Shown here in pieces: positions 3,970 to 8,769 of a DNA stretch of 42,566 bases; positions within the stretch are counted from its first letter, which is position 1; each line of letters begins with the position of its first letter. The position numbers were made by a program, and so were the translations under genes. Source of the DNA: a virus (taxonomy: Duplodnaviria > Heunggongvirae > Uroviricota > Caudoviricetes); the IMG/VR virus record IMGVR_UViG_2529292882_000014, positions 1-42,566 of that record, one strand, 5' to 3'. Under the pieces are notes generated by a model, which did not search any database, was not told the origin of the DNA, and saw only the letters and a program-made list of their open reading frames with translations.

Positions 3970-3990
3970 GGCCGCATTGCGGCCTTTTTC
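3970..3990. terminator. Bidirectional rho-independent terminator between the convergent SGNH gene and tailspike
   Basis: GGCCGCATTGCGGCC hairpin followed by TTTTT on the plus strand and a T-run on the minus strand. Confidence 0.5.
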
Positions 3991-6227
3991 TACCAGGAAG
4001 CATCAATGTAAAATATTGGTGAGGCTGTAGTAGATCCATTAATTGTTATCGACCCGGTTGATGCGCTTATTGTTGCCATCGCCATACCGTAAGATATTCC
4101 ATCAGCAGTGAACGGTACAGGGACATTTTTTGTTACTGTTGGTCTACACCACCTTGGCAGCGTTAGAACAGTATTACCATTCGCAAATGAAGTGGCTGCC
4201 AGTTTAATATTAATTGAATTGGCAGTTAAACTTGACGGTGCCTGTACTGTTACGTTTGTTCCAGCCCACCATTGAACAGCTGCTCTTGGCGTGTAATCAA
4301 CACGCGACCACCAGTCGATAATGGCAGAGCAGATAATTTCCGCATACAGACGATACCCTAACTGGCTTTGGTGAATGTCATCACGCAGAAGTGGGTCGTA
4401 TTGCGTATTGAAATACTCTGGATATGGGGCCGGGAGCTGGTGAGTTGTTGTTACACAAATGACGTTATTGCCATATTTCATCATCTGGCGTTTACCAGCT
4501 TCTCGCAACTCTGCGACACCGTCGTAGTTAGAAGATGGCTGGCCAGCCCCTCCAATAAATGACTGGCTATACCACATCCACGGCTCAACCCAAACAGGGA
4601 TACGACCAAGGCCATTGCAATATAAGACAAACTCATCTATCAATGACGCCATATAATCGCCGTTTTGGTTTGCCTGCCCTTCGTTAGTTCCGGCAACCAT
4701 AATAACGATGTAAGCATCACCCGGCCCCTGAGCCTTCAGGAGATCTAACTGTTGCCTCATTGTCTGTCCGGCAACTGCCTTGTTTACAATGCTATGTGAA
4801 CGGTGGCCGTTCGCTCCATCCATTAATTGCGGAATGTACGAGCTGAACGCGGAAATGAAATCCTCAGCTGTACTATCACCGTGGATAAGGATATTAAGTG
4901 GAGGCTTACCGTGCACGCCATTATCAGAGGTGTAGCTGCATAATCCAGTTACACGCGCAGAACCTCCAGATGCCGTGGTCAGTGCAACAAACCCAACTTC
5001 GTATACATCCCCTACATCAGCAGTATCAAAGGGCAAACGTATCCCAACGCCATTCATCGTTATCTGCGCCCAGTTTTTACCTTGCAGTGATACGCCAACG
5101 GTTGCTTTGCCCGGGGCGTACGACAGTAAACCTCCTGGCAGCGGGAATGGAGTTCCTTCTGCTACTGGACCACCAATTGGTTTCTGTCTATAAGACCACT
5201 GTGTAGCACCTGGTGCCCCATAGAACATCATCCAACCACCAGAGCATCGCAGAACAATCCCAACTTCTGAGGCGGCCTGAGATTCCATACGAATATGTGC
5301 AGAAATATGCTCTCCAATATCTATTGGTGCGAACAGGCCTGTTGTACGGTTAGTAGTTAAGGGGAAGATAGCTGCGCTATCTGAGGATATGGTGACTTCA
5401 CCTTCATAGAAGAACGTGTCACCATTTATGGAATAAACTTTACAATCTGACCATTCCACTCGCTTCATGCGAATAGGGTTTCGGTTGAGGATAGCCTGCT
5501 TAGCCAGGTAATCCACTTCCCCACCGGTTGCTTTAAAGTTCAGGTGCGTAAATTCAAACGTACCCTCCCCCTCGTACTGCAACGATTTAAACAGTGAGTA
5601 CAGATCACTGTCGAATCTCAGGGTGACATTTTTATCAATGATTACTTTACTGTTCGCAAGGAAAGAAGCGTTAGCAGCTGTAGACGGTACGGTGTACACC
5701 ATCTGATTTTTTGAATGATTAGAGAAGTAAACATACCCGTAGGTCGCAACACTATCGCGCCATGCCTGGACTACGTTAGAATTAACATAGCTTGGGATTT
5801 TTGTGATCGAATGCAAAACAAGGTCTTCCTGTGAGATAGCTCCATTTACCAGATTAACACCGCCTTGAGATGCAAGATCTTGCCTGAGTTGGTCAGGGTC
5901 ATACTTCAACACATTCGGAAAATAGAACTGCTGCGAACCATACGCATCATAAACAGCCATAGAATGCCCTTGCACAGTTACGAACTTGGCAATTTGTCCG
6001 TTATATACCGGATATCCAGCAGCGTTAATGATGATTGGTTGCGAAACAGGAACGTGAGAACCGTCTTCGTTCTCCACATAAACCTGAATCTGGTTTTCAG
6101 GATTTACCGGGTCAGTGTCAATTTTACCGATATAAATTTTTCCATTGGCAACCGCTTTAAAAGAACGCGCCATAGTGAAGAGTTGCGAAGGCATCGATAC
6201 GATCACATTGGCTGTAATGTCTGTCAT
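3990..6227 (-). CDS. Tailspike protein with P22-type head-binding N-terminal domain and an internal SGNH-esterase-like motif set
   Basis: 745 aa; first ~110 aa ([58 protein letters not shown]...) closely resemble P22 gp9 N-terminus; later [20 protein letters not shown] and [10 protein letters not shown] resemble SGNH blocks I, III and V. Confidence 0.9.
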
Positions 6228-7474: not shown

Positions 7475-7495
7475 ATAGGTCCACCGTGGACCTAT
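7475..7495. promoter_or_regulatory. Mnt operator (Omnt) overlapping the Pant start region
   Basis: 21-bp palindrome ATAGGTCCACCGTGGACCTAT with perfect 10-bp arms. Confidence 0.6.
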
Positions 7496-7502
7496 TGAGA
7501 AT

Positions 7503-7523
7503 ATAGTAGAGTGCTTCTATCAT
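7503..7523. promoter_or_regulatory. Arc operator (Oarc) within the divergent Pant/Pmnt promoter region
   Basis: ATAGTAGAGTGCTTCTATCAT, a 21-bp partially symmetric site matching the remembered P22 arc operator. Confidence 0.6.
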
Positions 7524-7550
7524 GTCAATACACTAACTTGGAGTGATGGC

Positions 7551-7802
7551 ATGGCTAGAGATGATCCGCACTTTAACTTCCGTATGCCTATGGAAGTAAG
7601 GGAGAAATTAAAATTCAGGGCGGAGGCGAATGGGAGATCAATGAACTCCGAGTTGTTACAAATCGTCCAAGATGCTCTATCAAAACCATCGCCTGTGACT
7701 GGATATCGCGACGATGCAGAACGACTCGCTGATGAGCAGTCAGAGCTTGTTAAGAAGATGGTGTTTGATACGCTGAAGGATTTGTACAAAAAACCCACCT
7801 GA
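7551..7802 (+). CDS. mnt: Mnt repressor (maintenance of lysogeny, represses Pant)
   Basis: 83 aa, MARDDPHFNFRMPMEVREKLKFRAEANGRSMNSELLQIVQDALSKPSPVTGYR..., matches P22 Mnt as recalled. Confidence 0.9.
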   Translation: MARDDPHFNFRMPMEVREKLKFRAEANGRSMNSELLQIVQDALSKPSPVTGYRDDAERLADEQSELVKKMVFDTLKDLYKKPT

Positions 7803-7808
7803 AGGTGG
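7784..7808 (-). terminator. Rho-independent terminator downstream of the lipoprotein gene, overlapping the mnt 3' end
   Basis: Stem CCCACC/GGTGGG with loop TGAA, followed on the minus strand by TTTTTT. Confidence 0.4.
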
Positions 7809-7818
7809 GTCCTATTTA

Positions 7819-8238
7819 TTAGTCTTGCTTTGTTGATGGTATAAGAGATGCGTTTGCCTCTTTTGGCTTCAAGGTATACATCCCACCATTAAAAGGATCT
7901 ACAGCAAGCCAACCAATTAACCCACCAAACACAAGGTTTCCACCAATATACCAGCCATTAGCATTGGCTTTGATTGGCAGGGTAACTGGTTCGTACCCAT
8001 CCTTTTCCATAGTGATCTGGTAGCTCTTTTTGCCAAAATAACTACCATCTGACTTGGCAAGAGTTACTCCTTGCGGGGTCTTACCTTGCGCAACAATCAC
8101 GCCTGATTCGTCTTTTACCTTAAAGCTCGCACCGGAAGGATTGCTGTTCACTTGCACAAGCTGCGTTTCGTCACCAACAATAGTTGCGCACCCAGATAAC
8201 AATATAGCGCCAGCAACGACGCCAATAATCCTCTTCAT
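7819..8238 (-). CDS. Small lipoprotein with a glycine-zipper-like C-terminal segment (moron at the sieA position)
   Basis: About 139 aa from MKRIIGVVAGAILLSGC (lipobox LSGC); C-terminal GWYIGGNLVFGGLIGWLAV; an in-frame upstream ATG at 8250 is also possible. Confidence 0.65.
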   Translation of the reverse strand: MKRIIGVVAGAILLSGCATIVGDETQLVQVNSNPSGASFKVKDESGVIVAQGKTPQGVTLAKSDGSYFGKKSYQITMEKDGYEPVTLPIKANANGWYIGGNLVFGGLIGWLAVDPFNGGMYTLKPKEANASLIPSTKQD

Positions 8239-8355
8239 ATCAATTTCCATATTTAAAAAACCGGAAACATCCTAATGACAAACCATTCAAATATGAAGTA
8301 GGCAAAAGATGTTTACTTTTTTCATGGTATCCTGCTCAAAACTAAGGAGGTTGGC

Positions 8356-8745
8356 GTGAAGCAATTTCTTACTGTTATGTTCTTATTCATATCTTTTGGG
8401 GCTACAGCAGAGTGCTGGGTCGTTGGAGATATGCGCGGAATAAGCTATTCAGAACGAAATAATTTCCATCCGGAAGAAGATGGTTTTAGTGGAACATTCA
8501 TCATTAAGACAAACGGTGAAGATGCCAGCATCACATATTCTGGGACAGATGCGGGCGGCATGGCTTACAAAGCATTGTCTAAAAACTCCATCATAGGAAT
8601 CGGCGCGAATGGCGAAACTCAACGCGTTATCGACTCATGGGTAATACATCCTACTGGAACAGTTTTAATGTCAAAAACCATTTCCGGTTATGGAAATATG
8701 GATTCAACCAAAGCTTTTGTTGGAAAAGTAAAAAGAAAATGTTAG
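8356..8745 (+). CDS. Small secreted protein of unknown function
   Basis: 129 aa, GTG start preceded by AAGGAGG; signal-peptide-like N-terminus MKQFLTVMFLFISFGATA; about 41% GC. Confidence 0.6.
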   Translation: MKQFLTVMFLFISFGATAECWVVGDMRGISYSERNNFHPEEDGFSGTFIIKTNGEDASITYSGTDAGGMAYKALSKNSIIGIGANGETQRVIDSWVIHPTGTVLMSKTISGYGNMDSTKAFVGKVKRKC

Positions 8746-8769
8746 CGATTGAATCCAATTTCCCATACG

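Follow-up and report, generated by a model that had tools for sequence, protein, structure and literature searches.

The hypervariable region of P22-like genomes between gene 16 and gene 9 includes the "ant moron", a prophage-expressed hot spot for add-on genes whose variability has already been described (PMC2629481). In P22, the interval treated here consists of mnt, orf59a, hkcC (on the opposite strand), and sieA, which converges on gene 16. SieA-family proteins are integral to the inner membrane, with three to four transmembrane helices and an FxRYPxEAxxFNK motif, and 85 bp of DNA upstream of P22 sieA suffices for functional single-copy expression (PMC10883804); the start of the gene was called uncertain, yielding a product of 162 or 164 residues (Leavitt et al. 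2024). The gene is carried by 22 of 66 sequenced P22-like phages, and about two-thirds are without it. We analyzed a stretch of 42,566 nucleotides (hereafter the window; positions 1 to 42,566 of IMG/VR virus record IMGVR_UViG_2529292882_000014, Caudoviricetes), a P22-like Escherichia coli prophage that carries a gene for a small secreted protein in the sieA position and, divergently oriented next to it, a gene for a small lipoprotein. Both genes have already been deposited in phage genomes as hypothetical proteins; the new element is the assignment of the secreted protein to the family of Hex, an exclusion protein of phage 434.

Hex was characterized in another genomic setting. The gene is co-transcribed with cI from PRM (PMC3564112), and replacement of hex raised spontaneous induction 30-fold in recA+ cells and not in recA- cells (Shkilnyj, Colon and Koudelka, PMC3564112). 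With the fragment sHex, RecA-stimulated cleavage was blocked in vitro for both the 434 and the P22 repressor, while over-produced full-length Hex proved toxic (PMC3564112). The exclusion phenotype is older and is taken here from its later citation, according to which lambda-imm434 lysogens of Salmonella exclude P22 only with intact hex (Susskind and Botstein 1980, cited in PMC3564112). A signal peptide or export of Hex is not mentioned in PMC3564112, and the phage 434 records name the hex product "repressor protection protein".

The secreted protein of the window aligned with 434 Hex over its full length by BLASTP (27% identity over 133 columns, E = 2e-12), and the remote homology search with hhalign gave a match at 99.8% probability (E = 4e-29, 128 columns). 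A tblastn comparison with HK446 gp39 revealed 27.8% identity, again over the full length and with a reciprocal match (E = 9e-6), and bridging sequences aligned well between the secreted protein and the Hex group. On these alignments, the secreted protein is a full-length, distant member of the 434 Hex/Sf6 gp38 family. Hex homologues lie directly after cI in 434, HK446, HK633, Sf6 (gene 38), Sf101, and Huey, whereas the window gene is not downstream of cI and sits between mnt and the gene 16 homologue; no second Hex-like gene was found within the window. Location behind cI is what defined hex originally, but it does not decide membership of a protein family. The protein matched PHROG 2651, which has no known function, and no Pfam, NCBIfam, or PADLOC family; a sequence search of the PDB yielded chance-level matches only. 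Profile searching of 1.8 billion cluster representatives recovered about 119 clusters, nearly all of 125 to 135 residues; a profile search of a word-indexed protein database contributed little more. Distant members of the family (∼29% identity) were also seen outside phages, one between a SRAP gene and a umuDC-like pair (L095 2252-2632) and another adjoining a resolvase and an integrase (L096 3799-4188); the Hex family thus travels on other mobile elements too.

We place the start of the secreted gene at the GTG at 8356, which lies 5 nucleotides after a perfect AAGGAGG ribosome-binding site and retains the MK... n-region kept by all homologues. The Prokaryotic Genome Annotation Pipeline (PGAP) instead starts the protein at Met8 (RefSeq WP_001334102.1, 122 residues; L004 3878-4246), which cuts into the signal peptide and loses the basic n-region; the export signal of the RefSeq copies may therefore escape automated prediction. 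By a simple rule-based check (not SignalP), on which all signal peptide and lipobox calls in this work are based, the N-terminus comprises a basic n-region, a 13-residue hydrophobic core, and then ATA/EC. The n-region and core were present in 51 of 51 sampled family members, and small residues occupied positions -3 and -1 in 45 of them. The mature forms of all 51 contain two or four cysteines, never an odd number, with two in the window protein; one cysteine stands beside the mature N-terminus and another at the C-terminus in 49 of the 51. Together with the lipobox pattern detected in 36 of 38 homologues of the lipoprotein, these family-wide signals are in strong agreement with the original prediction that both products are exported. 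Two Hex-like variants (window 8356-8409 versus L082 4944-4997) possess entirely different signal peptides, MKQFLTVMFLFISFGATA and MKLIIAMAFLVFSFSVSA, with a nonsynonymous divergence (dN) of 0.56, on mature parts that are nearly identical (dN 0.012). Such a swapped signal peptide on a conserved mature part points either to recombination with its joint at the cleavage site or to a signal peptide under relaxed constraint.

The structural model of the secreted protein (predicted local distance difference test score of 84) was an all-beta, eight-stranded barrel. The highest 19-residue hydropathy in the mature protein was 0.77, and the signal peptide is its sole hydrophobic stretch. An outer-membrane barrel is unlikely, as the mature part has 111 residues, lacks a C-terminal aromatic residue, has terminal cysteines, and is charged on the presumed outer face. 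A Foldseek search of viral models (BFVD) returned one weak match, to an uncharacterized protein, and did not recover Hex. The Hex homologue of phage Huey (L184 2001-2405) is annotated as "lipid A acylation protein PagP", a label that would suggest an outer-membrane barrel but is probably a fold-based mis-annotation due to the eight-stranded barrel.

These features bear on the published role of Hex. A cytoplasmic Hex-like protein, working in the way published for 434 Hex, would stabilize lysogeny by shielding the prophage repressor against RecA-stimulated self-cleavage, with any exclusion being incidental. The recA dependence of the 30-fold rise in induction, the inhibition of repressor cleavage by the Hex fragment, and the product name in the 434 records all speak for such a role, yet we consider it quite unlikely. 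sHex begins at E43 of the 158-residue open reading frame (ORF) used by its authors, which is exactly the predicted signal peptidase site of 434 Hex, ANS/ECW (L183 2501-2905). The cleavable signal peptide and paired cysteines found throughout the family, along with this start of sHex, are hard to reconcile with a cytoplasmic protein. The toxicity of over-produced full-length Hex and the placement of the window gene in the sieA slot, not beside a repressor gene, also argue against it. Moreover, the hex allele had been made by replacing the gene with a cat cassette, which lies immediately behind cI on the shared transcript; polar effects on cI are therefore possible.

The DNA ahead of the Hex-like gene closely resembles the leader of P22 sieA (Table 1). 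Within this block, the downstream portion that runs from TGGTATCCT (8325) to the GTG is also found ahead of the slot gene of epsilon34, which is hkcB-like, and ahead of that of Emek, which is the same secreted gene as in the window; the DNA further upstream differs in epsilon34 and Emek. The arrangement AAGGAGG-N5-GTG is common to P22 sieA (L003 3480-3494), the hkcB-like gene of epsilon34, and the Hex-like gene in the window and Emek. Because the same Shine-Dalgarno sequence and GTG recur, and because the Hex-like signal peptide requires the GTG start, we favor the GTG as the true start of sieA. On the opposite strand, a stump of hkcC retains the start and first five codons (MKKVN) of the P22 gene, then diverges and reaches a stop after 12 codons; this comparison places the left recombination joint of the lipoprotein cassette at the stump. 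An HExxH motif (AHECAH) is present in P22 HkcC. Conservation of the leader up to the GTG, taken with the stump, indicates that the secreted gene replaced the sieA reading frame precisely at the start codon; the layout relative to P22 indicates that the lipoprotein gene has taken the place of hkcC and orf59a. The original prediction had put the two genes together in the sieA position, which is exact for the secreted gene and does not apply to the lipoprotein gene. The right-hand cassette boundary is not conserved, as the stretch that separates the slot gene from gene 16 is different in P22, epsilon34, Gally, and the window.

Table 1. Features of the window around the Hex-like gene and the lipoprotein gene, in window coordinates.
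Feature	Position	Strand	Remarks
Tailspike gene	3990-6227	-	Followed by ant and arc (-)
Pant/Pmnt promoters	near 7495-7528		Terminator/promoter scan
mnt	7551-7802	+	
GC-rich hairpin ACCCACC-TGAA-GGTGGGT	7793-7810		Between the converging mnt and lipoprotein genes; terminator scan
Lipoprotein gene, 139 residues	7819-8238	-	Alternative in-frame ATG at 8250
Glycine-rich hydrophobic segment NGWYIGGNLVFGGLIGWLAV, residues 94-113	7900-7959	-	Then DPFNGGMY; nearly invariant
Predicted beta-sandwich domain, residues 25-93	7960-8166	-	Transthyretin/carboxypeptidase-regulatory/PEGA type
Predicted signal peptide and lipobox, MKRIIGVVAGAILLSG then C17 and Ala18	8188-8238	-	C17 and A18 invariant in 38 homologues
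Divergent spacer, 117 bp	8239-8355		AT-rich, 33.3% GC
Weak promoter candidate TTCATA-17-TAGGAT	8297 to 8269	-	Spacer scan
hkcC remnant, 12-codon stump MKKVNIFCLLHI and stop	8287-8325	-	Comparison with P22
Block like the P22 sieA leader	8309-8358	+	47/50 nucleotides identical; holds Shine-Dalgarno AAGGAGG (8344-8350) and GTG (8356-8358)
Weak extended -10-like candidate TGGTATCCT	8325-8333	+	Spacer scan
Hex-family secreted-protein gene, 129 residues	8356-8745	+	
Predicted signal peptide of the secreted protein	8356-8409	+	Predicted cut ATA/EC; mature protein 8410-8742; stop 8743-8745
Gene 16 homologue	8770-10611	-	Gene 20 homologue next

No terminator-like hairpin was found in positions 8746-8769, between the stop of the secreted gene (8745) and that of the gene 16 homologue (8770), so the transcript of the secreted gene should run antisense into gene 16. 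It might thus be the RNA and not the protein that matters: a transcript from the sieA-type leader into the 3' end of gene 16 would be an antisense exclusion RNA resembling STnc6030, which is made in BTP1 lysogens, is antisense to injection and tailspike genes, and excludes BTP1 (PMC7067206). We judge this highly improbable given the strong protein-level purifying selection on the ORF and the membership of its product in a family of about 119 same-length protein clusters. The ratio of nonsynonymous to synonymous substitution rates (dN/dS) of the mature secreted protein was 0.09 to 0.10 when compared to an 89%-identical variant, and that of the lipoprotein was 0.04 relative to the epsilon34 copy; values of ∼0.1 and 0.04 indicate that both are real genes under purifying selection.

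The two ORFs lie divergently between mnt and the gene 16 homologue, just where two small exported proteins had been described. A lower guanine-plus-cytosine (GC) content than in the structural neighbors, also stated for both genes, was found for the secreted ORF (40.5%) and the spacer, but hardly for the lipoprotein gene (45.0%), when compared to gene 16 (46.9%), gene 20 (48.4%), and the window overall (46.1%). The hairpin between mnt and the lipoprotein gene corresponds in position to a rho-independent terminator annotated in the epsilon34 record, and it probably ends transcription in both directions. Over the locus stretch, the window is 99.8% identical to prophages of strains that include A35 and O111:H- 11128, and the exact arrangement of both genes is present in 43 of 5426 complete E. 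coli genomes. In A35, the tailspike gene forms the end of the prophage and adjoins torT (L185 15306-18728), at the torS-torT site into which HK022 and Gally are described to integrate.

For the lipoprotein, the ATG at 8238 (MKRIIG..., 139 residues) is a more likely start than that at 8250, as it is used by PGAP, PHROG 6823, and all homologues. The lipobox is LSG/C, and Ala-Thr comes next in 34 of the 36 homologues with the pattern. By the sorting rule of E. coli, lipoproteins that have no Asp at position +2 go to the outer membrane; Asp is absent there, and the protein is therefore predicted to be located in the outer membrane. The original prediction of a glycine-zipper-like tail was correct in part: there is a glycine-rich segment at residues 94 to 113, which is not the extreme tail, since a beta-hairpin follows. 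Invariant columns among the 38 homologues are G95, W96, Y97, N101, G109, D114, P115, G118, M120, and Y121. The mean Kyte-Doolittle hydropathy of residues 94 to 113 is 1.28, borderline for a membrane segment, and the segment was modeled with low confidence as two short helices; GxxxG-like spacing is visible in GGNLVFGGLIGW as a pattern only. No glycine-zipper Pfam model (Gly-zipper_Omp, Gly-zipper_YMGG, or the SlyB-type Rick_17kDa_Anti) matched the lipoprotein at E ≤ 1. An identity with Cor (PHROG 1119) was rejected, as the match (E = 0.0036) is limited to residues 5 to 24, i.e., the signal peptide; a hit to NCBIfam LEPBI_I2678 was uninformative (22.8 bits versus a cut-off of 240).

The lipoprotein is 97.8 to 100% identical to epsilon34 gp15, Gally GALLYPH_14, and PHROG 6823, and its identity to a gene of phage 720R6 lies in the same range (98 to 100%); epsilon34 gp15 was listed by its authors as being of unknown function with many bacterial homologues. 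The family is large, with more than 700 matches across Enterobacterales (728, versus 22 for the secreted protein), and identity across genera is 55 to 80%. Besides the ant moron of P22-like phages, we found a 68%-identical copy in HK97-like prophages of E. coli, where it occupies the slot of HK97 gp15, flanked by the tail chaperone and tape-measure genes. Further homologues are located before the tape-measure gene of Proteus prophages, with their own promoter-like site and flanking terminators, and, in another type of prophage, between the tail genes I and J. Others reside in ordinary non-phage chromosomal neighborhoods of Enterobacter and Rosenbergiella. The lipoprotein has been captured repeatedly by temperate phages from a broad enterobacterial family. 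Such very strong conservation in different phage types and host genera hints at contact with a conserved host component and not with a fast-evolving phage protein. The HK97-like prophages with the lipoprotein homologue also hold a porin gene (Porin_1/Porin_4) among their tail genes (L008, L010 10261-11424; L011 10270-11343), so that two envelope morons reside in one tail operon.

Expression data are available for the Gally copy, the product of which is identical to the window lipoprotein. In RNA sequencing of strain LF82 (PMC9928086, tables S1 and S4; the meaning of columns B1 and B6 was not taken from the table legend), GALLYPH_14 reached log2 values of fragments per kilobase per million (fpkm) of 9.4 to 11.0 in macrophages and bacteria-only samples. 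The corresponding values in stationary lysogeny broth (LB) were 4.8 to 6.2, and those of the adjacent gene 16 homologue were 3.6 to 4.2 (PMC9928086). The gene was thus ∼100-fold above neighboring late genes in LF82(Gally) lysogens and 14-fold higher in macrophages than in LB, from which we conclude that lysogens transcribe the Gally lipoprotein gene independently of the late operon and in a condition-responsive manner. The lipoprotein gene shows some of the features of a moron: it is present or absent among related phages, a terminator comes after it, and prophage expression is known for the Gally copy. The cargo in the sieA slot of Gally, gp13 (L006 2381-2896), encodes a 171-residue lipoprotein with lipobox LLAGC; it too is transcribed in lysogens and rises in macrophages.

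Such a pattern might mean that the two genes have nothing to do with phages and are instead cargo for host fitness or virulence, as lambda Bor and Lom are, serving in envelope stress, serum or antimicrobial peptide resistance, or ligand binding. The chromosomal homologues in Enterobacter and Rosenbergiella, the cross-genus identity, the increase of the Gally copy in macrophages, the stabilization of the outer membrane under stress by the glycine-zipper lipoproteins SlyB and YfgH, and the distant relatives of the secreted protein on non-phage mobile elements all fit this explanation. We regard it as unlikely but deserving of serious weight, because deletion of Gally left the survival of LF82 in macrophages unchanged, the Hex family has a genetic exclusion phenotype, the secreted gene stands behind the sieA leader, and the lipoprotein has no match to a glycine-zipper family. 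Chromosomal homologues are, furthermore, known for HK97 gp15, which is nevertheless an exclusion protein. For the lipoprotein itself, remodeling or stabilization of the outer membrane under host-like conditions, by analogy with SlyB and YfgH, is a role to which we assign a little less than an even chance; masking of a receptor or blocking of phage entry, by analogy with Cor and Llp, is a more tentative suggestion.

To assess how the two genes are inherited, we retrieved 80 IMG/VR loci for each gene and used tblastn to assign the neighbors. About 21 of the 80 loci with the secreted gene had the lipoprotein as neighbor, 14 had P22-type orf59a and hkcC, and 45 had neither. Among the 80 loci with the lipoprotein, the neighbor was the secreted gene in about 20, a different lipoprotein, as in Gally, in 17, an hkcB-like protein that combines an N-terminal membrane helix with a coiled coil in 12, and another 109-residue protein of hkcB-like design in 15. 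A tblastn search with P22 SieA found P22-type sieA in none of these 160 related loci and not in the window. Examples of the alternative cargo include epsilon34 gp14 (L001 3358-3681), which is of this hkcB-like kind with membrane helix and coiled coil, and a 109-residue protein of similar design (L101 ∼4580-4910); all alternative cargo seen in the slot encodes envelope proteins.

The original prediction had treated the two genes as a pair. A two-component envelope module, for example of an anchor and a soluble partner, would accord with their adjacent and divergent placement on a common 117-bp spacer, with the identical arrangement in those 43 E. coli genomes, and with the Gally genes at both positions, which rise and fall together across conditions. 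The counts do not sustain it, and we hold such a module to be improbable: only about a quarter of the loci with one gene contain the other, the lipoprotein occurs elsewhere with the Gally-type lipoprotein or with hkcB-like and other transmembrane plus coiled-coil proteins, and the secreted gene occurs with orf59a and hkcC or with nothing. Consistent with this assortment, epsilon34 has the lipoprotein without the secreted gene, Emek has the secreted gene without the lipoprotein, and the families are far apart in size and host range (728 versus 22 matches). Because these co-occurrence counts show independent assortment, the two genes are not a functional pair.

The explanation that we favor, at about even chances, is that the locus contains two independent add-on cassettes (morons), each encoding an envelope protein made for the lysogen and not for the virion. 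For the Hex-like gene, the proposed sequence of events is as follows. The gene would have been swapped in at the start codon of sieA and would use the sieA leader and ribosome-binding site. Its product would be exported by Sec and cut after Ala18, and the mature protein would be a periplasmic, ∼12-kDa eight-stranded barrel, probably closed by a Cys20-Cys129 disulfide. From the periplasmic side, the barrel may act on DNA delivery by incoming P22-like phages, either on the needle or on the conduit formed by the ejection proteins. The homology, export signals, predicted fold, and position of the gene were obtained directly from the analysis, whereas expression in the lysogen, exclusion, and the target are inferred. 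That the protein is a prophage-expressed exclusion factor against P22-like phages, like Hex and SieA, is a proposition for and against which we find the evidence evenly balanced. A broader and distinctly more speculative extension is that Hex-family proteins, including 434 Hex, are exported periplasmic barrels that stop P22-type phages at DNA delivery and are not cytoplasmic antagonists of RecA-stimulated cleavage. According to this extension, the sieA position would serve as a "socket" whose leader and ribosome-binding site stay fixed while unrelated envelope exclusion proteins (SieA, Hex-like barrels, lipoproteins, and transmembrane plus coiled-coil proteins) are swapped in at the start codon.

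Several observations weigh against these proposals. The published biochemistry of Hex implies a cytoplasmic role against RecA-stimulated repressor cleavage (PMC3564112), and the best structural matches of the barrel include the true outer-membrane barrels NspA and OmpW, which would allow a membrane location. The window retains the proximal half of the 85-bp region upstream of P22 sieA; the -35 element annotated for PsieA in P22 has not been conserved, and neither standard nor relaxed scans of the spacer (8239-8355) gave a promoter match better than chance. Because that upstream region is only partly kept and no promoter exceeded chance, expression of the window locus in lysogens is something we infer. 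The Gally data may not transfer to the window, since the DNA upstream of the lipoprotein gene differs between the two; the Gally gene was not counted as a moron in LB by its authors, at 3.3 times background relative to a cut-off of 5 times, and the unchanged macrophage survival of the Gally deletion counts here as well. Neither protein matched a defense model in PADLOC-DB 2.0 at E ≤ 1, and no phenotype is on record for either gene or any close homologue.

The genes that fill the sieA slot have so far been left "hypothetical", and one common filler is now seen to be a relative of Hex, which was defined more than 40 years ago by exclusion of P22. Hypothetical slot genes thereby become a concrete exclusion hypothesis that is testable with the assays published for SieA. 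The searchable literature contained no report of a sieA-slot gene as a member of the Hex family, of Hex export, or of one leader shared across unrelated slot cargo; nothing relevant emerged either when the literature was searched with protein accessions or for prophage-borne PEGA lipoproteins. The finding points to a possible problem with the accepted mechanism of Hex, which would need re-examination if Hex were exported and the sieA position were a socket; the slot would then also offer a ready panel of interchangeable entry blockers to try on the gp7/gp20/gp16 conduit. The lipoprotein is a well-defined candidate for phage exclusion or outer-membrane adaptation, being conserved, present at four or more prophage sites, and, for the Gally copy, strongly expressed inside macrophages.

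Comparison with described systems places the lipoprotein among several partial parallels. Like epsilon34 gp15, GALLYPH_14, and PHROG 6823, it stands beside mnt, but the neighboring slot gene differs. Its homologue shares a slot with the HK97 gp15 moron, and both families have chromosomal relatives; gp15, a small inner-membrane exclusion protein of the YebO family, is unrelated in sequence. Cor (phi80/N15) and Llp (T5) are outer-membrane lipoproteins that block FhuA, and they set a precedent for exclusion at the outer membrane; they are likewise small phage lipoproteins, often encoded among tail genes, but differ from the window lipoprotein in fold and size. SlyB and YfgH resemble it by analogy only, in the lipid anchor, the beta-rich domain, and the glycine-zipper-like hydrophobic segment, and the domain order of SlyB is reversed relative to that of the window lipoprotein. 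SlyB is described as belonging to the PhoPQ pathway, and, as a further parallel, the Gally copy of the lipoprotein is induced in macrophages.

For the Hex-like protein, P22 SieA is the closest system by position. The two genes share the slot, orientation, near-identical leader, Shine-Dalgarno sequence, and GTG, and both products are assigned to the envelope, by prediction in the case of the window protein. They have no sequence similarity: SieA possesses three transmembrane helices and no signal peptide, whereas the window protein is a soluble-looking barrel that gave no tblastn match to SieA and has no segment of SieA-like hydropathy in its mature part (maximum of 0.77). By sequence, the closest systems are 434 Hex, Sf6 gp38, and HK446 gp39. 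The window protein differs from 434 Hex in being only 27% identical, in having two cysteines, and in being encoded in the sieA slot of the late region rather than in the PRM operon behind cI. It shares with this group, which spans podoviruses and siphoviruses of E. coli, Shigella, and Salmonella, a prophage-expressed position, a signal peptide, ECW at the mature N-terminus, ETW/SW in the middle, and FVGxVxxxC at the C-terminus.

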